Assembly (NCBI RefSeq): GCF_000091665.1
Contig: NC_000909.1
Location: 1,546,838-1,578,837, forward strand
DNA: 32,000 bases
Reading direction: 5' to 3'
DNA from: Methanocaldococcus jannaschii DSM 2661
GTDB taxonomy: Archaea > AGJL01 > Methanococci > Methanococcales > Methanocaldococcaceae
In this document: positions 147 to 29,546 of the stretch, one piece after another
Position numbering within the stretch: the first letter of the stretch is position 1
How the letters are laid out: the number at the start of each line of letters is the position of its first letter
Notes under the pieces: model-generated
Told to the model about the DNA's origin: nothing
Databases searched by the model: none
The model's input: the letters and a program-made list of their open reading frames with translations, nothing else
Program-made: the position numbers and the translations under genes

Positions 147-979
147 AAGAAATATATAGACTTGTTGATGTTTCATATAAATATCCTAATGGTTCTATTG
201 CTTTGGATAATGTAAATCTAAATATATACAAAAATGAGGTAGTAGCTATTTTAGGACCAAATGGAGCAGGAAAAACCACATTATTAAAAATTTTAGATGG
301 ATTAGTATTTCCAGATAAAGGAGAAGTTTATTTTGAAGGTAAAAAATTAACTGACGAAATATTAAGAGACAAAGAACTGATGAAAGAATTCAGAAGAAAA
401 GTTGGATTCGTTTTTCAAAATCCTGATGTCATGCTATTCAATCCAACTGTTTGGGATGAAGTGGCTTTTTCTCCTCTCCACCTTTACTCAAAAGAAAAGG
501 CTATTGAAGTTACCGACAAAACATTAAAAGACATGAAAATTTATCATTTAAAGGATAGGCATCCTTATAATCTAAGTGGTGGAGAGAAGAAAAAGGTTTC
601 AATATCGTGTATATTGTCTGTTGAACCAGAGGTTATTTTAATGGATGAACCTACATCTGCATTAGACCCAAAAAGTAGGGCTGAAATTATGAATTTAATA
701 AAATCATTTAAAGAGTGTGGAAAAACTGTGGTTTTAGTTACTCATGATTTAAATTTGGCTTGCTTGGCAGATAGATGCTACGTATTAAACAAAAAGGTTA
801 TATTCGAAGGAAAAGTAAAGGATTTATTTTCACTAAATTTGGATGAGTTAAATTTAGATGTTCCTGAGATATCTAAGCTTTTTATTAAATTGAAGAATAT
901 GGGTTATAATATAAATGAAATACCAGTTACATTAGATGAAGCAGTCAATATTATTTCAAAATTATTTCAAAAATATTAG
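143..979 (+). CDS. cbiO: ABC transporter ATP-binding protein, CbiO/EcfA-like (cobalt/ECF energy-coupling ATPase)
   Basis: Walker A GPNGAGKTT, ABC signature LSGGEKKKVSIS, Walker B ILMDEPTSALD and H-loop VTHD are present. It is translationally coupled to the upstream CbiQ-like fragment. Confidence 0.85.
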   Translation: MKEIYRLVDVSYKYPNGSIALDNVNLNIYKNEVVAILGPNGAGKTTLLKILDGLVFPDKGEVYFEGKKLTDEILRDKELMKEFRRKVGFVFQNPDVMLFNPTVWDEVAFSPLHLYSKEKAIEVTDKTLKDMKIYHLKDRHPYNLSGGEKKKVSISCILSVEPEVILMDEPTSALDPKSRAEIMNLIKSFKECGKTVVLVTHDLNLACLADRCYVLNKKVIFEGKVKDLFSLNLDELNLDVPEISKLFIKLKNMGYNINEIPVTLDEAVNIISKLFQKY

Positions 980-3627
980 GAAAGTAGCTTCTCTAAAATT
1001 CTTATTGCTTGCCATTTATCTAAAAATTCGTTAAATGTTCCACACTTTGTTGAGTATATGCAGAGAGGACATCCGTCTGCGCAGTTACAGTTTTTCAAAT
1101 GCTCTAAGCTTTTATTTAGCAGTTTTTCAGCATTTTCATATAGAATCTCCGCCAATCCAAAGCCTCCCTCATTTCCGTCATAGATGAAGATAACTGCTTT
1201 ATCCTTAAACAGATTTCTGTTGAATCTCTCATAGCTGTAGCCACCAATCTCTCTGCTGTCTATATAGGTAAAGATTGGAGTTATCTTTATAATATTATGC
1301 TCTATAGCATGCAAACCCCCAGCAATGCCGTCTTTGCTATCAATAAGCTTTTTTATCTTATAGGTTAGCTCTTCAACCTTTTTAGTGTCTTTTTTAACGT
1401 TTAAGTGCTTTTTAACTCTATTTTTAATAACATTCTTTATGTAAGTGAGTTGTAGCTCCCAAGTAAATTGGAAATAGCTCTTTTCTGCTGAGTTTTCTAT
1501 CTCTATAGATTGAGATAGCTAAATCATCCTCTTCTATCTTATCCAAGAAACTCAAAGAACTCTTCATTTGGTTAACATCCCTAATATAATCTGGAAATAA
1601 CATAACCATATTCCATCTGTCTCAAAGTCTCTAATAATCTTTTTGTTAAACTTAACACTTATAAAGTTCAAGCCAAAGAAATCCTTAAATAAATCAATCT
1701 CTGCATCTAAGATGCCATTATCTTTTAGAGCTAAAAGCTCTTGATAGTATTTATCAACATCAACTCCTCTAACAATAAATCCCTCATAAATCTTCCTAAC
1801 TCTCAATCTTCCATAATAGATGTCTATATCCTTATAGCTCTTTTTATCATAAATATCTAAGATGTCAATCTCTTCCTCTTTCTTCTGCAGTGCTTCAACA
1901 TCCCAAAACATATCCAACTCATCGGCAAATATAAAATGAAATTTCCTAATACCTATCTTGTCCTTGGCTATAAACAGCTTCCCTCTTGAAAAATAGGGCA
2001 TTCCAGTAATTAGAGAGCGGTAATACTCATCTTTATCAACCTCTTCAATAACATAGCCCTTAATCTTAAGCCAATTTATAAAACTCAAAATCTCACTTTG
2101 GGTTTTATTTAACAATTTAGATTTAATCCATGGTTTATCTAAGATTAAATAATAGCTCTCATCACTTGCAGTTCTTATTGATGAATAAATAGGCTGTTTT
2201 ACATTCCTTATCTCTGTCTTGTTGGTTATTGGGTTTTTATAAATCTTTATCTTCCCTTCTCTCTCAAGTTCTTTAACTATCTCCTTCTCAAAGTCATTAA
2301 GTTCATCAAAATCCACTATTTTTAACTCAGAGATTAAATAATGCAAGTGCTTCTTAGTAACAAATCTATTTTTTATATTTACTGGCATGTATTCAATAAT
2401 TCCTTTCCTAATCCTCTCATAAAGCTCATTTAGATGCTCTTTATAGTAATAATCTAAACCGTCCTTCCTTAGAACTATGATGTTTAAAGCTTCTTTATCT
2501 CTCCTCCCAGCCCTACCAAACCTCTGAATTAATGAAAATATGCCATCTGGTGGAATACCATAGTTTATAACTGCATCTAAATCTCCAATATCAATTCCAA
2601 GCTCTAAAGCATTGGTTGTTAATAAAGCTAATATCTCCCCATTTTTAAACTTCTCCTCTATCTCCTCCCTGACATACTTTGGCAGAGTGCCTTTATAGGT
2701 TGAGAGTTTATAAAAAACCTTAGAATTTAATAAAAATCTCATCAACTTCTCTGTCTCTTTCCTTGTATCAAAGAATACAAGAGTTTTTATATTGTTATCT
2801 ACTAAATTCTCTATCAATCTTCTCAACAACTGTTTATTGTCCAAATTCTTTGGCTCTAAGATTGCTAAATACTTCCTTGATGAAGGATTGTAGCTTTTAT
2901 CAACAACCTCAAAATCTCTATTAAACAACAATTTAACAAACTCTTTTGGGTTTTTTAAAGTTGCAGAGAGGCAGAGTATCTGCAAATTGTTATTTAATCT
3001 CTTCAAAAGCTTTAACAATCTCTTAAAAACATAAACCATGTTTGTTCCAAAGACTCCCCTATAAACGTGGAGTTCATCAACAACTAAGAGCTTTAAATTC
3101 TTTAAAAGCCATAAATAGTTGTTGTGGTTTTTTAATATTTGATAGTGAAGCATATCTGGAGTTGTAAATAATACATTTGGCTTATCCTTCAAAATCTCCC
3201 TTCTTTTCTCTAAGCCCACATCTCCAGTTAATATCTCTGCTTTAACTCTCTTGTTAGTTATTTTATAAAATAGCTCATTCTCCATAGAGAATTTTTCATA
3301 TTGGTTGTTTATCAATGCCCTTGTTGGATAAATAAGCAGATACCTATCGTCAGGATTTGACAAGAAGTTGTCAAATATAGCCAATCTAAAAATCTCACTC
3401 TTTCCACTTGCTGTTGATGTTGTAACAACCACATCTTTTTTATTGTAGAGATACTTTAAAGCCTTAACTTGATGTAAATATAATTTAAATCCTAAGGCAT
3501 CAATTAGCTCATTAATCTCTTTATTTTTAAATTTGAAGTTGGAGAATCTCCCTTTCCTCTCTGGGATTTTGTAAATCTTTATAATTTCTTTTTCAATGCC
3601 TTTAAATACATCTTCCATGACAATCAT
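976..3627 (-). pseudogene. Superfamily-2 DEAD/DEAH-box helicase with a C-terminal DUF1998 (MrfA/YprA-type) zinc domain, split over three reading frames
   Basis: The 687-aa ORF (1564..3627) carries motif I TSTASGKSE, motif II VVDELH, motif III LSAT and motif VI QRFGRAGRR. The collinear ORF 1424..1609, and then a frame open from 1518 to 976, continue the protein. The last piece has the cysteine cluster NCNCADGCPLCIYSTKCG. Two frame changes are needed, near 1600 and near 1500. Confidence 0.6.
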
Positions 3628-3858
3628 CTTCTATTGAATCTTTTCCATAAACGTTATTTATACTGGGAAATAAATTTTTAATGATTAATGCTAAATAGAT
3701 TTGTAATCTTGGATATTTAATATTGGGTAAACTGGTGAAATCATTTAAAATTTAAATAACCATAAGCTACCGCTCTATAATATCCATAAAAGGAAATATG
3801 ATTATAAAACTGACTTCAATAAATTTGGAGGATAATCATAATAAAAGAAATTTTAAAA

Positions 3859-4087
3859 TATAGTGTCTTTCAAAGTTGTTAAAATTAATATTAATAATGG
3901 ATATTTGAACGCTCTCCTATAGGGAGGTGTTCATTAATGCCTTAGTTATTCCAGAAACCATAGGGCTTCGCCTATTGGTATACCCAAATCCTTCTGAGTT
4001 GCACCTCCGAGCGTAAGCGAGGAGGTGTTAGATTTTTGATGAACCTTTTACTAAAAGGTTCTTTCAAAATGTTTTTGAAAGATACTA
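3859..4087. repeat. Composite MITE-like element (family E, copy E1) with GC-rich hairpin modules
   Basis: The termini TATAGTGTCTTTCAAA (3859) and TTTGAAAGATACTA (4087) are imperfect inverted repeats. Internal hairpins are 3907-3932 (GAACGCTCTCC/GGGAGGTGTTC), 4002-4027 (CACCTCC/GGAGGTG) and 4041-4061 (GAACCTTTT/AAAAGGTTC). Blocks are shared with the copies at 17557 and 21560. Confidence 0.6.
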
Positions 4088-4107
4088 ATAAAATATAAGG
4101 TGATAAA

Positions 4108-4674
4108 ATGATTGTTATCTTAGACAACGGAGGGCAGTATGTTCATAGAATACACAGAAGTTTAAAGTATATTGGAGTTAGCTCAAAGATAGTTCCAAAT
4201 ACAACACCATTGGAAGAGATTGAAAGCAATAAAGAAGTTAAGGGTATTATACTAAGTGGAGGGCCTGATATTGAAAAAGCTAAAAATTGTATAGATATTG
4301 CTTTAAATGCTAAACTCCCTATTTTGGGGATTTGTTTAGGACATCAATTAATTGCCTTGGCTTATGGTGGAGAGGTTGGAAGGGCTGAGGCAGAAGAATA
4401 CGCACTAACAAAGGTCTATGTAGATAAAGAAAACGATTTATTTAAAAACGTTCCAAGAGAGTTCAATGCATGGGCTTCACATAAGGATGAGGTTAAAAAA
4501 GTTCCAGAAGGTTTTGAGATTTTAGCTCATTCAGATATATGTCAGGTTGAAGCAATGAAACATAAAACAAAGCCGATTTATGGAGTTCAGTTCCACCCTG
4601 AAGTTGCTCATACAGAATATGGAAATGAGATTTTGAAAAACTTTTGTAAAGTTTGTGGTTACAAATTTGAATAA
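4108..4674 (+). CDS. guaAA: GMP synthase (glutamine-hydrolysing), glutamine amidotransferase subunit A
   Basis: It is a class I GATase with nucleophile elbow GICLGHQL and FHPEV histidine. It is 188 aa, as in archaeal split GuaA. SD AGGTGA lies 5 nt upstream of the ATG. Confidence 0.92.
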
Positions 4675-8655: not shown

Positions 8656-8670
8656 GGGAAAACCCTATTG

Positions 8671-8766
8671 ACAAAGGACTTTACAGCTTTTTATACCATA
8701 TAAGGAATTTTGATGCCAAAGGCATCTTTATTCAATCATAAAATTTTATTTCTGTGAAAGTCCTGT
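8671..8766. repeat. MITE-like element, family F, copy F1
   Basis: The termini are ACAAAGGACTTTACAG and CTGTGAAAGTCCTGT (inverted). The core is GGAATTTTGATGCCAAAGGCATCTTT with hairpin GATGCC-AAA-GGCATC (8712-8726). The same core and TIRs occur at 29632-29727. Confidence 0.65.
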
Positions 8767-8772
8767 GATACC

Positions 8773-8837
8773 CTAACACCTCCTCGCTATGCCCGGAGGT
8801 GTAAATTAGCAAATTATTATCTTGAAAGACACACAAT
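8773..8837. repeat. Short family-E derivative (copy E4): one TIR plus the GC-rich hairpin module, abutting F1
   Basis: CTAACACCTCCTCGCTATGCCCGGAGGTGTAA (8773-8804) is the reverse complement of the module at 4002-4031, matching about 27/30. CTTGAAAGACACACAATA (8821-8838) resembles the family-E terminus TTTGAAAGACACTATA. Confidence 0.5.
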
Positions 8838-13909: not shown

Positions 13910-14780
13910 ATGAAGGCAGATTTGCACATACACACAAAATATTCTGGAATTGGTAAATTTTGGAAACTTAAATTCCCTGATTCTGTTGAAGAGCCAAGAA
14001 ATATATTGAAAGTAGCTAAGAAAAAAGGCATTGAGGTTGTAGCAATAACTGACCATAATACAATTAGGGGAGGGGTTGAGACAAAAAAATTGGAGAAAGA
14101 GTTTGGAGTTGAAGTTGTTATAGGTAGCGAGATTATGACTACCGAAGGGGAAATAATTGGTTTATTTTTAAATGAAGATATACCTAAAGGTTTATCTCCA
14201 GAGGAAACTATAGAAAAAATTAAAGAACAAGGAGGATTAGCTATAGCTCCCCATCCCTACAGCCCCATCTGTAAAGCACTTGGAGACCGAATATTTGACT
14301 TAGATTTGGATGGAGTTGAGGTTTTTAATGCCTACCATAGGGATGGAATAGTTAATAATATAGCATTAAATAAGGTTATAAAGGAACTACCACAAAAAGC
14401 CTTTTGCATTTATTGGAGGGAGTGATGCTCACATAGCGAGGATGGTAGGGAATGCCTATACATTATTTGAGGGAAATTCAGCTGATGATTTGTATAAGGC
14501 AATAGTTAAAAAAAGAACGACTTATGAAGGAAAGCCAACACCTTTGTATCAAGCAATATTATGGAGTTATAAGGTTGTCTATACGTCAGAAAAGAAGTTA
14601 ATAAAATCTTTAATTTTTAGGATAGGAGATAATACAATTGATTCAATAAAACTTTATAAAAAGATTTTAGGAGTTTTTGGAGGATTTATTTATATATTAA
14701 CTCCCCTTCCAATAGTTTCCGGATTTTTAGGTAATTATTACCTTAAAAAGAAAGCAAAGGAAAAAATGAAAGAAGTTTAA
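13910..14780 (+). pseudogene. PHP-domain (polymerase/histidinol-phosphatase-like) metal-dependent phosphoesterase, interrupted by a frameshift
   Basis: The N-terminal sequence is MKADLHIHTKYSG and ITDHNT is present. ORF1 stops at 14425. The frame of ORF2 is open from 14382 and reads ..KKPFAFIGGSDAHIARMVGNAYT, the missing PHP motif. The switch must lie at or near the A5 run at 14394-14398. Confidence 0.65.
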
Positions 14781-14803
14781 TAGTTTTTTGCAAAAAACTA
14801 TTA
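14778..14803. promoter_or_regulatory. 26-bp perfect palindrome TAATAGTTTTTTGCAAAAAACTATTA between two genes
   Basis: It is perfectly self-complementary by inspection. It includes the TAA stop of the upstream gene and ends 10 nt before the next ATG. The related core TTTTGCAAAAAAC recurs at 15835-15847. Confidence 0.4.
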
Positions 14804-15539: not shown

Positions 15540-15701
15540 ATAGAGTTGTTCTTTATTTGAGAAAGTATTTACCAATACAGCTCTCAATATTTGGAAAAAT
15601 CGGGGCAAAGTTAGCTACTTTACATTTAATTGTTTATGAGATATCTTTTTTAATTGTAATAGTTGTTTGGTATCTCTTTTTTATTGTTTAAAGTTTATTT
15701 A

Positions 15702-15786
15702 ATAGGGCTTTCGCAGGAATAGACTTTTATAAGGAAAGTTGATTCCTAAATGCCTTATCAAATAATAAAAACTGTGAAAGTCCTAT
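15702..15786. repeat. MITE-like element, family F, copy F2 (divergent core)
   Basis: The termini ATAGGGCTTTCGCAG and CTGTGAAAGTCCTAT are inverted repeats matching the F1/F3 termini. The internal sequence differs. Confidence 0.5.
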
Positions 15787-15926
15787 TTAAATCACCTAAT
15801 TAATTTTTCTAATAGCTAAATAATTATTAGATTCTTTTGCAAAAAACTTTTTATAATTAGAAATTTTAAATAAATGTTAGCATCTATCAAAAACCATATT
15901 AAAAAAATCTAAAATGATGGAAAACG

Positions 15927-16375: not shown

Positions 16376-17425
16376 ATGGAAAGAGGTAATGAAAAAATAA
16401 AACTAACTGAATTAGTTAAACTCCACGGATGAGCTTGCAAACTGCCCAGCACCGAGTTAGAGTTTTTAGTTAAAGGAATAGTTACTGATGATGACTTATT
16501 GGACAAAAATATCTTGGTTGGTTTAGGAGATGATGCATCAATAATTAAGAGGAATGGGTTAGTTATAGCAAAGACAGTTGATGTCTTTACACCAATAGTT
16601 GATGACCCATACATACAGGGAAAAATAGCAGCTTGCAACTCAACAAGCGACATCTATGCTATGGGACTATTGGATATAGTAGGAGTTTTAGCAATTGTTG
16701 GTATTCCAGAGAAGCTTCCAATACACGTAGTTAGAGAGATGTTAAAGGGCTTTCAAGACTTCTGCAGAGAGAACAAAACAACAATAGTTGGTGGTCATAC
16801 AATACTAAATCCATGGCCCTTAATTGGAGGAGCAGTTACTGGTGTTGGAAGAGAGGAGGAGGTTTTAACAAAGGCTGGAGTTAAGGTAGGAGATGTTTTA
16901 ATATTAACAAAACCATTAGGAACTCAAACAGCGATGGCGTTATCAAGAATCCCAGAGGAGTTTAAGGATTTAATTAGCATAACTGAAGAAGAAAGAGACT
17001 ACATCATAAATAAGGCAATAGAGATAATGACTACATCAAACAGATATGCATTAAAAGCTCTAAGAAAGGCTGAAGAAAGAGTTGGAGATAAAATAGCAAA
17101 TGCTTTAACTGACATAACTGGATTTGGAATATTGGGGCATTCAAATGAAATGGCTAAGAATAGCAATGTTTTAATAGAAATAAATTTACTGCCTTGTATA
17201 AAAAGGACTCCAGAGTTAAGCAGATTATTTGGACATGCTTTATTGGATGGTTATGGTGCAGAAACTGCTGGTGGCTTATTAATATCAGCAAAAGAAGAAT
17301 ATAAAGATAATTTAATTGATGAGTTGGAAAAAGCTAAATGCTATGCTTTTGAAGTTGGAAGAGTTGTGAAAAAAGGTGAAGGTAAAGCAGTTTTAAGTAA
17401 GGATGTTAAAGTTATTGAAATTTAA
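16376..17425 (+). CDS. selD: Selenide, water dikinase (selenophosphate synthetase) with in-frame UGA = selenocysteine at codon 19
   Basis: SD AGGTGA (16366-16371) precedes the ATG at 16376. The translation is MERGNEKIKLTELVKLHG-U(16430-16432)-ACKLPSTELEFLVKG.. and runs in frame into the track ORF (16499..17425). U aligns with the catalytic Cys/Sec of the SelD glycine-rich N-terminal loop. A SECIS lies in the 3' UTR. Confidence 0.9.
16439..16459 (+). repeat. 5' arm of a 21-nt perfect long-range inverted repeat (inside selD, 7 nt after the UGA)
   Basis: AAACTGCCCAGCACCGAGTTA is the exact reverse complement of 17447-17467. Confidence 0.9.
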
Positions 17426-17446
17426 TATCAAACATATATATGCTAT

Positions 17447-17467
17447 TAACTCGGTGCTGGGCAGTTT
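17447..17467 (+). repeat. 3' arm of the 21-nt long-range inverted repeat (selD 3' UTR, 15 nt before the SECIS)
   Basis: TAACTCGGTGCTGGGCAGTTT is the exact reverse complement of 16439-16459. Confidence 0.9.
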
Positions 17468-17481
17468 TTATAACGTTCTTA

Positions 17482-17514
17482 CGATGTGCCGAACCCTTTA
17501 AGGGAGGCACATCG
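17482..17514 (+). promoter_or_regulatory. Archaeal-type SECIS element in the selD 3' UTR
   Basis: The sequence is CGATGTGCC-GAA-CCC-TTTAA-GGG-A-GGCACATCG. It forms a 9-bp GC-rich lower stem, an asymmetric GAA/A internal loop, a 3-bp upper stem and a small apical loop. It starts 57 nt after the stop codon. Confidence 0.85.
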
Positions 17515-17528
17515 AAATCTTTGATATA

Positions 17529-17540
17529 TTTTTATTTTTT
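17529..17540 (+). terminator. Oligo-T tract, probable selD transcription terminator
   Basis: TTTTTATTTTTT lies directly after the SECIS. Archaeal termination typically occurs at oligo-T runs. Confidence 0.4.
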
Positions 17541-17556
17541 ATTTCACTGTTTTGAC

Positions 17557-17669
17557 TATAGTTCTTTTTAAAATATTTTGTAATAACTAAGGCACTGATG
17601 AACTCCTTCCATTAGGAAGGGAGTTCAAACTTAATTAATAAACTTTATTAACATTTGAAAAGAACTATA
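17557..17669. repeat. MITE-like element, family E, copy E2
   Basis: It has perfect 12-bp TIRs TATAGTTCTTTT and AAAAGAACTATA. The central hairpin GAACTCCTTCC-ATTA-GGAAGGGAGTTC (17600-17626) is preceded by TGATGA. Blocks are shared with E1 (inverted) and E3. Confidence 0.7.
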
Positions 17670-21559: not shown

Positions 21560-21684
21560 TATAGTGTCTTTCAAAAACATTTTGAAGTAACCAGTAGCTT
21601 ATGAACACCTTCCAAAGGAAGGCATTTAAATATTTATTGTCAAATATTTATTAATAAACTTTAATTAATTTTGAAGACAGTATA
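21560..21684. repeat. MITE-like element, family E, copy E3
   Basis: The termini TATAGTGTCTTTCAAAA and TTTTGAAGACAGTATA are imperfect inverted repeats. The hairpin is GAACACCTTCC-AAA-GGAAGG. It shares TTAATAAACTTTA..TTTTGAA with E2. Confidence 0.65.
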
Positions 21685-23536: not shown

Positions 23537-24119
23537 GTTAAAATCAGACCTCTTGGAGGATGGAAATGCTGTAAGCACATCTGGACTAGAAAAGTCAGAA
23601 TTTTTAACCTAGTTAAAATCAGACCTCTTGGAGGATGGAAATGTTTTTATTATCTTAATTTTTTTTCTTAAAATCAGACCGTTAAAATCAGACCTCTTGG
23701 AGGATGGAAACATAAGCACTTTTTTAGCTCTTTTACTTCATTTTCTGTTAAAATCAGACCTCTTGGAGGATGGAAATTTTTTGGTGGGGAATATGGAAAT
23801 TGACAATAACACAATAAGTTAAAATCAGACCTCTTGGAGGATGGAAACGAAATAAACCAATGTTTAACTTGTGGCTGTTTTAAGAAGTTAAAATCAGACC
23901 TCTTGGAGGATGGAAATGAAAATAAATAAACCCTCCAATGCCAAACCAAAATTTTTGCAATTAAAATAAGACCGATTCGGTATGGAAACTGGAACAATCC
24001 GTTTAAAACTTCATACTCTTCTTTTGTGGTTAAAATCAGACCGATTCGGAATGGAAACACGAAATACCATTTTCAGATACGATTTTTTAGTTAAACCGAA
24101 ATCCTTGAAAAATAGAAAT
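23537..24119 (+). CRISPR. CRISPR array 1: 8 clear repeats plus 1 degenerate terminal repeat, with two repeat types
   Basis: Repeats start at 23537, 23612, 23681, 23747, 23818 and 23887 (31 nt, GTTAAAATCAGACCTCTTGGAGGATGGAAAT/C). Repeats at 23960 and 24029 are 30 nt (..AGACCGATTCGG.ATGGAAAC). A degenerate repeat starts at 24090. Spacers are 31-44 nt and unique. The 3' ATGGAAA(T/C) tag and leader position give + orientation. Confidence 0.95.
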
Positions 24120-28681: not shown

Positions 28682-29546
28682 ATTAAAATAAGACCGTTTC
28701 GGAATGGAAATCGTAAATGGTTCGTCTTTATTGACTAAAAACACAGTTTATTAAAATAAGACCGTTTCGGAATGGAAATTGGGAAATATAAGTCAGAGAT
28801 TGATGCTTTGGCAGATTAAAATAAGACCGTTTCGGAATGGAAATAAAAGATGTTGAGAGATGCATTTATTCATAAGAAATTTATTAGATTAAAATAAGAC
28901 CGTTTCGGAATGGAAATTCCTTATGAAGTATTTAACTATGACGACATGAAGTTATTAAAATAAGACCGTTTCGGAATGGAAATAAACTACCGTCTGCACA
29001 AACAGCTACCATTAATCTTAATATTAAAATAAGACCGTTTCGGAATGGAAATGATATTTCAGCAGATGTTTATCTGCTTCATTTAATTGAACCTCATTAA
29101 AATAAGACCGTTTCGGAATGGAAATTGGAGGGATTTTCATTTTTTAAATTTGATAATGTATTTGAAGAATTAAAATAAGACCGTTTCGGAATGGAAATAG
29201 TTTTCACCCCAAAAAACACTATTGTCCTTTCTTATTAAAATAAGACCGTTTCGGAATGGAAATTTTAATTAAGCTTAGATAATCTTGAATATTTTTTCTT
29301 GTAAAATTAAAATCAGACCGTTTCGGAATGGAAATACACATATTGATAAGGTAGAAGTATCAGTAAATGGACATTTATTAAAATAAGACCGTTTCGGAAT
29401 GGAAATCGCAATCATTAATAAATCCCAATACATCGATACAAAAAATTAAAATAAGACCGTTTCGGAATGGAAATAATTGTAATATAATCATCGAAACTCC
29501 AACCATAATCCCTATAATTAAAATCAGACCAATTCGGGATAAAACA
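28682..29546 (+). CRISPR. CRISPR array 2: 12 clear repeats plus 1 degenerate terminal repeat
   Basis: The 30-nt repeat is ATTAAAATAAGACCGTTTCGGAATGGAAAT. Starts are at 28682, 28750, 28815, 28888, 28954, 29023, 29096, 29169, 29234, 29306 (A9C variant), 29377 and 29445. A degenerate repeat starts at 29517 (ATTAAAATCAGACCAATTCGGGATAAAACA). Spacers are 35-43 nt and unique. Confidence 0.95.

Follow-up and report, generated by a model that had tools for sequence, protein, structure and literature searches.

Three copies of a short palindromic repeat, referred to here as family E, are found in the window, the 32,000-nucleotide stretch of the Methanocaldococcus jannaschii DSM 2661 chromosome that was analysed (C1:1546838-1578837; Table 1). 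The copies E1, E2 and E3 lie where the preliminary description placed them and have inverted TATAGTGTCTTTCAAA-type termini, which in E2 include the perfect 12-bp terminal repeats that had been reported (TATAGTTCTTTT and AAAAGAACTATA). As had also been noted, no transposase is present in the window. A hairpin had been ascribed to every copy; the central hairpin is indeed found in E1, E2 and E3, but the central stem is partly degenerate in E1, where it has G.T wobbles and a bulge, and in E3, where the lower part is degenerate and only the 6-bp top is kept.

Table 1 Features of the window and the parent-like IS of a congeneric genome (window positions unless stated otherwise; scores are those of the family-E covariance model).
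Feature	Position	Strand	Remarks
E1, whole composite	3859-4087		51 bits (minus strand)
E1 outer MITE-like element, larger part	3859-3957	-	TA, terminal repeat, central hairpin (3905-3930), arm to insertion point
E1 nested GC-rich element, 104 bp	3958-4061	+	three hairpin modules X, Y and Z; not family E
E1 insert, module X	3958-3986		
E1 insert, module Y	~4000-4031		
E1 insert, module Z	4034-4061		
E1 outer MITE-like element, remaining terminal repeat	4062-4087	-	TA expected after it is AT (degenerate)
Palindromic repeat of another family	8670-8769		CTGTGAAAGTCCTG-type ends
E4	8773-8837	-	module Y hairpin of the GC-rich class; not family E
Mini-palindrome	14779-14802	.	24-bp perfect palindrome, two fused family-E termini (TTTTTTGC type)
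Palindromic repeat of another family	15700-15788		CTGTGAAAGTCCTG-type ends
Solo terminus-like 13-mer	15836-15848	-	TTTTTTGC type
GC-rich hairpin	17448-17516		just past the stop of ORF 16499-17425
E2, intact MITE-like copy	17557-17669	+	element 17559-17667; empty site in G006 and G001; 102 bits
E2 TA duplication	17557-17558 and 17668-17669		
E2 central 12-bp hairpin	17600-17627		
E3, MITE-like copy	21560-21684	+	extra AT-rich internal hairpin; empty site in G001 and others; 45 bits
E3 TA duplication	21560-21561 and 21683-21684		
CRISPR arrays	23537-24058 and 28682-29474		two repeat types on opposite strands; DR39 minus, DR13 plus
Parent-like IS, ~1.15 kb	G011:C64, L116 ~885-2040		TA on both flanks

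E1 had been interpreted as an inverted copy with nested extra modules, and this interpretation holds: it has the orientation opposite to that of E2, and a foreign insert lies within the family-E copy, ~20 bp inside one end. The insert is composed of three hairpin modules of a second repeat class, which are found elsewhere in the M. jannaschii genome in many combinations; module X (CCATAGGGCTTCGCC(C)TATTGG type) has 21 copies, module Y (ACACCTCC...GGAGGTGT type) has 20 and module Z (TTTTGATGAAC-stem-GTTC type) has ~26. The GAACCTTTT/AAAAGGTTC hairpin assigned to family E is present in E1, but it is module Z and belongs to the second class. This class is GC-rich (42-46% GC in the insert) and is the source of the GC island in E1. 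Family E as a whole had been described as GC-rich, which is not the case for E2 and E3, both with 25% GC, which is below the genome average. As a 106-bp unit, the inserted element is repeated at 89-92% identity in the sister genomes G001 and G006. The insert is flanked by a ~12-bp direct repeat of the host element, which is readily seen in the G006 copy and has been eroded in M. jannaschii.

E4, which had been listed as a short family-E derivative, has as its hairpin a Y module that is continuous with further modules of the second class, and the family-E model does not detect E4; the sole resemblance to family E at this position is an 11-nt terminus-like stretch adjoining the hairpin (~8824-8834), which may be a solo end. 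A genuine derivative is the mini-palindrome, in which two termini are fused and which is a minimal internal-deletion form of family E. Terminus-like 13-mers outside the family-E loci of M. jannaschii were considered as the ends of an autonomous partner and rejected: they are solo ends or mini-palindromes, and the window pair at 14782 and 15836, ~1 kb apart, encloses a gene for a membrane protein (Gate domain) and not a transposase.

Upstream of E2, the GC-rich hairpin at 17448-17516 has a conserved upstream motif (AACTCGGTGCTGGGCAG) and is kept in eight congeneric genomes, in which the surrounding spacer is not conserved. It has no relevant Rfam match in a permissive scan of 17400-17560; the hairpin is a candidate for a small RNA or a transcript-end structure.

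Census and genomic setting of family E

A genome-wide search for further copies had been proposed, and an iterated nhmmer search from E2 converged on 47 family-E loci in the M. jannaschii chromosome, ~105 bp each, a number far beyond chance. As a quasi-palindrome, the element was matched on both strands at nearly all of these loci. The copies have a common order, namely TA, terminal repeat, AT-rich arm, central stem-loop, second AT-rich arm, other terminus and TA. The terminal inverted repeats are ~15-27 nt long and TAGTGTCTTTCAAAA-like, with at least three matched subtypes, such that a terminus of TAGTGTCTTTCAAAA, TAGTTTTTTGCAAAA or TAGTTCTTTTCAAAA is paired with its own complement at the opposite end; the terminal arms are 93.5% identical across 15 nt (32 copies). 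The central hairpin has a GC-rich stem of 9-12 bp (TGAACGCCTTCC / GGAAGGCGTTCA) and a loop of 2-8 nt. Between the two helices the first arm includes TAAGG and the second CCTTA, and these AT-rich arms are consistently asymmetric, so that each copy has an orientation. With a length of 100-125 bp the elements contain no ORF and hence have no coding capacity of their own. Median pairwise identity among the M. jannaschii copies is only 0.68 (maximum 0.90), which indicates that they are old. Folding z-scores range from -3.6 to -8.5.

The intergenic position of the copies, claimed from the window, is true of all 47 loci as judged by crude ORF calling, by which 21 lie in tandem, 19 in divergent and 6 in convergent spacers; one further copy is inside an 80-codon ORF that was probably created by the element itself. 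Divergent spacers are moderately over-represented (19 of 46 copies, against ~27% expected from spacer length). Orientation relative to the adjacent genes, counted by hand, is split 15 to 6, which is not significant.

Two known classes of structured RNA were considered for these elements and rejected. Box C/D sRNAs are defined by a pair formed of a C box (RUGAUGA) and a D box (CUGA); the motif TGATGA, which had been said to precede the hairpin often, does so in only ~5 of the 47 copies, where the consensus is TAATGAAC, and there is no Rfam C/D match. GC-island structured RNAs, of the kind found in the screen of Klein, Misulovin and Eddy, do not correspond to the composition of E2 and E3, as only the E1 insert stands out in GC content. 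An Rfam scan of the whole window at the gathering threshold gave nothing in E1-E4 and matched only the CRISPR repeats, while a permissive scan of E1 returned only weak, chance-level matches.

A covariance model based on 30 of the M. jannaschii copies was used to assess the distribution of family E; the counts given are model matches, and each locus is able to match on both strands. With 95 candidates scored per genome, the family was detected in 11 of the 16 other genomes of the genus, with 1 to 90 matches in each of these, and was not detected in the other five. A further 17 matches were found in one genome of another genus, which belongs to another family of the same order. The complete genome G013 holds identical copies (loci L145-L164), which indicates a recent burst, and has no cognate IS630-family transposase.

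Insertion sites and a parent-like IS630 element

Target-site duplications, which the preliminary description had suggested looking for at the copy boundaries, are apparent from pairs of filled and empty sites, and the duplicated sequence is TA. At the E2 position the sister genomes G006 and G001 have the empty site TTTTGAC-TA-AATTTTTT, and the filled site of M. jannaschii reads TTTTGAC-TA[TAGTTC...GAACTA]TA-AATTTT. At the E3 position the empty site, present in G001 and others, is TTTTA-TA-GCTTGAAG, and the filled site is TTTTA-TA[TAGTGTC...ACAGTA]TA-GTTTAAAG. The copy at C1:410671 likewise has TA on both sides and an empty counterpart in G001, and the copies at C1:1629425 and C1:515571 are missing from all relatives that can be aligned across the site. 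The same spacers have been entered more than once: in G013 a copy of another subtype has inserted independently within a few bases of the E2 site, where its sister G014 is empty, and G013 and G014 have different family-E insertions in the E3 spacer.

Of the bases that flank the 47 copies, T and A are the most frequent on either side, with counts of 28-35 at each of the four positions, and TA|TA flanks are present in 16 copies. The data fit a duplication of TA and equally an element that is one base longer at both ends and has inserted between T and A; the copy at C1:515571 fits insertion between T and T better than TA duplication. Long target duplications were rejected, since the mean flank-to-flank match of the 47 copies equals that of a mismatched-pair null, with one outlier. 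The copy at C1:1629425-1629532 has, in addition to the TA duplication, an 18-bp imperfect duplicate of the end of the upstream gene on its far side. The left copy of these 18 bp is identical to the sequence in relatives and the right copy has diverged (15/18), and the upstream gene uses the terminal TAG of the element as its stop codon. This additional duplication is not explained by IS630 chemistry.

A Pfam search of 17 genomes of the genus revealed a single DDE_3 match, at locus L116 of the draft genome G011, which is the only genome in which a candidate transposase was seen. The match lies in a parent-like IS (Table 1) with the ends TATAGTGTTTTTCAAAATGTTTTGGAAAA and, on the other strand, TATAGTTCTTTTCAAAATATTTTGGAAAA. 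The 24-mer from the left end of E2 (with Y at position 13) matches the right end of this IS with no mismatch and the left end with three, and 0 of 200 shuffles matched. The MITE-like element shares no more than its terminal 17-27 nt with this IS, from which its interior, hairpin included, is not derived.

The IS encodes two ORFs, the first a helix-turn-helix ORF of 69 residues and the second, in the -1 frame, of 288 residues. Their overlap (L116:1158-1172) contains A AAA AAG, a classical -1 slippery heptamer, in frame 0 of the first ORF, and the split into two frames is due either to programmed -1 frameshifting or to a recent frameshift mutation. The second ORF matches the NCBIfam IS630 model NF033545 with 159.9 bits (cut-off 100) over model positions 39-291 and the first ORF covers positions 3-39; as the two match adjoining segments of the model, together they constitute one transposase. 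Related proteins in the collection searched are encoded by single ORFs of ~350 amino acids and are named IS630 family transposase; the nearest named relative, a fragment, is from Methanotorris formicicus (81% identity). In profile searches, M. jannaschii and 15 of the 16 other genomes of the genus lacked an IS630-type transposase, and no remnant of the interior of the IS was found in M. jannaschii. No clean empty site was found for the IS, the region not being collinear with M. jannaschii.

Taken together, insertion at TA, empty sites in sister genomes and ends matching those of an IS630-family IS bear out the earlier reading of these repeats as non-autonomous MITE-like elements, and family E is highly likely to be a MITE of the IS630/Tc1-mariner type. 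By analogy with that family, an IS630-family DDE transposase supplied in trans would bind both ends and excise the element, which would then be pasted into a TA dinucleotide with duplication of the TA. As M. jannaschii has no IS630 transposase, its 47 copies appear to be stranded and decaying. Weighing against this reading are the detection of the transposase in a single draft genome, the burst in G013, whose complete genome has no cognate transposase, the better fit of C1:515571 to insertion between T and T, the additional 18-bp duplicate at C1:1629425 and the mirrored arm variants described below.

In this scheme E1 arose when the 104-bp element of the second class entered a family-E copy, with a target repeat of ~12 bp, and the 229-bp whole then continued to transpose on its outer ends. 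The identical nesting point is found in a composite at a non-orthologous locus of G006, and two more G006 loci hold an E1-type composite with a third element nested inside; the presence of the composite at these three other loci indicates that it has propagated as a unit on its outer termini. E1 is the sole copy of the composite in M. jannaschii, and its two flanking genes are non-adjacent in all other genomes of the genus, so that E1 marks a synteny breakpoint (window 3450-4450). The palindromic family with CTGTGAAAGTCCTG-type ends, which occurs twice in the window, is also nested in two of the G006 copies of the E1-type composite.

Palindromic repeats with compensated stems, as family E has, are also known among REP elements, which raises the alternative that the repeats are REP/PATE-like and that a Y1 transposase (IS200/IS605 or RAYT type) moves them in the form of single-stranded hairpins. 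To our knowledge REP/PATE-like elements have neither DDE-type terminal inverted repeats nor a target duplication, whereas here TA is duplicated and 24 nt of the end match the end of an IS630-family element. Movement by a Y1 enzyme is accordingly extremely unlikely.

A different alternative accepts an origin as MITEs and holds that some copies have been adopted by the host, as BRE/TATA-adjacent sequence, as a stop codon or as a transcript-end hairpin. The insertion point of E3 is at the edge of a TATA-like box, 24 bp before the ATG start of a minus-strand gene, and as a consequence the E3 terminus is now at the BRE position; a neighbouring gene has its stop codon in the terminal TAG of 6 of the 47 copies (crude ORF calling), and the enrichment in divergent spacers would also be expected. 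The same positions, however, would result if TA in AT-rich, TATA-like DNA were the preferred target and harmful insertions were purged, and the orthologous genes function without the element in relatives. Adoption by the host is therefore regarded as unlikely.

Covariation of the two arms

The preliminary description had stated that the arms differ between copies and nevertheless stay complementary. The statement was found to apply more widely than claimed, to the termini as well as the central hairpin, both in M. jannaschii and across species. RNAalifold, applied to 30 copies, predicted exactly two helices, a 12-bp terminal stem and the central stem. In these copies standard pairs occupy 95.8% of cells, compared with 86.8% after the partners were shuffled among copies; 11 of 21 pairs have changed on both sides, compared with 5.8 in the shuffles; and the covariation score is 0.272, compared with 0.114. 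None of 500 shuffles reached the observed value in any of the three measures. Sliding the partners lowers pairing to 38-53%. An anchor-based test, in which the alignment is independent of pairing, again detected covariation of the arms, also within each terminal-repeat subtype (0/2000).

Individual copies show the same coupling. There are private variants that are mirrored in the opposite arm (for example TTCATTGC/GCAATGAA and CCCCCA/TGGGGG), and in two copies one base is deleted in both termini. Across species both helices have shifted in step, as exemplified by G013, where GTTGTGTGC termini are found with a TGAATGCC/GGCATTCA stem, and by G039, where GTCAGTGAC termini are found with a TGACTACC/GGTAGTCA stem. 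The complementary TAAGG and CCTTA between the helices look uncoupled in the aligned copies, as judged by eye.

Matching termini are expected at the level of subfamilies if both ends have to suit one transposase and the elements co-evolve with its variants. Transposase binding does not account for the mirrored private changes or for the compensated central stem, which point to base pairing or to copying from arm to arm. Coupling of this kind could arise by intramolecular template switching within the quasi-palindrome (the Ripley model), or from selection on a folded single strand during mobilisation.

Covariation alone is no proof of an RNA role. The suggestion that the repeats are structured RNAs or protein-binding hairpins rather than MITEs is taken here in its RNA form: the elements or their hairpins would be small structured RNA genes or cis-regulatory RNAs of the GC-island type, and the covariation would reflect selection on RNA folding. 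Strong covariation in two helices, compensated even across genera, agrees with such a role, as do the stable predicted folds and the preference for promoter-bearing (divergent) spacers. Against it, the intact copies E2 and E3 are AT-rich, no Rfam family is reached at threshold and no C/D-box pattern is seen, and the copies are present or absent at orthologous sites in close relatives, with five genomes of the genus having none. Furthermore, the fold is equally good on both strands, the stem mismatches are mostly transitions without strand bias (42 G.T and 32 A.C), and the elements have transposon ends and a TA duplication. The suggestion is thus unsupported, and RNA genes or regulatory RNAs are a very unlikely explanation of the family.

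Compensated changes preserve the terminal stem and the central hairpin in M. jannaschii, across species and across genera, and the arms between them drift; this could be read as structure-dependent mobilisation or as an RNA hairpin. The more general proposition, that ~100-bp MITEs of the IS630 type need a folded single-stranded or cruciform form for mobilisation or act as RNA hairpins, is considered improbable, and we know of no structure-dependent step in the accepted IS630/Tc1-mariner mechanism. If it were true, the folded form could help a single transposase complex to capture, at high temperature, two ends separated by only 100 bp.

Relation to known repeats

For annotation, the preferred reading of family E as an IS630-type MITE means that the 47 loci, and many more in the sister species, should be masked as such elements and not recorded as small RNA genes; the hairpins of the family account for some of the intergenic DNA that appears structured in M. 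jannaschii. Features that may be of interest for the study of mobile elements are the candidate parent IS with its classical A AAA AAG frameshift site in a congeneric genome, the composite of two unrelated repeat classes that has kept moving as a unit, and the arm covariation, which exceeds what transposase binding alone explains.

The repeats themselves are very probably those published in 2005 and hence already known, a match made by description and to no specific group. The published set reportedly comprises 141 elements in three groups, 14.3 kb in total, and its members are said to be ~100-bp palindromes, mostly extragenic and with low identity between copies. In genome, length, palindromic form, mostly extragenic position and low inter-copy identity, family E resembles MJRE1-3 as reportedly described. 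With 47 copies of ~105 bp it fits the description of one MJRE group, and another group probably corresponds to the GC-rich modules of the E1 insert. MJRE1-3 are the palindromic repeats of M. jannaschii of Suyama, Lathe and Bork (FEBS Lett 2005, 579:5281), as cited in PMC2229807 and PMC2996958, and the repetitive DNA of M. jannaschii is also the subject of a survey in a 2007 thesis by E. Li. A literature search found no paper linking IS630, MITE and Methanocaldococcus, and in the literature searched, the content of the 2005 MJRE paper aside, no description was found of the TA duplication, the parent-like IS or the composite subfamily.

Among bacterial repeats, ERIC and Correia/NEMIS elements resemble family E as imperfect palindromes located in spacers, although family E has no sequence relation to them. 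Compensatory changes and effects on neighbouring transcripts have been reported for both. For these repeats and their kind, Wilson and Sharp (2006) is the work cited in PMC2229807.

Family E is an ordinary kind of mobile DNA, and the known systems closest to it include RUP and Stowaway. The RUP element of Streptococcus pneumoniae is attributed to IS630-Spn1, and the Stowaway MITEs of plants are of the Tc1/mariner type. Like these, family E is short and non-coding, shares its termini with an IS630/Tc1-mariner transposon, duplicates TA, has a hairpin-like fold and is present in many spacer copies. Unlike them, it is found in an archaeal hyperthermophile, its interior is unrelated to the parent and includes a central GC-rich hairpin that compensated changes have preserved across species, and most of the genomes that carry it have no such transposase.
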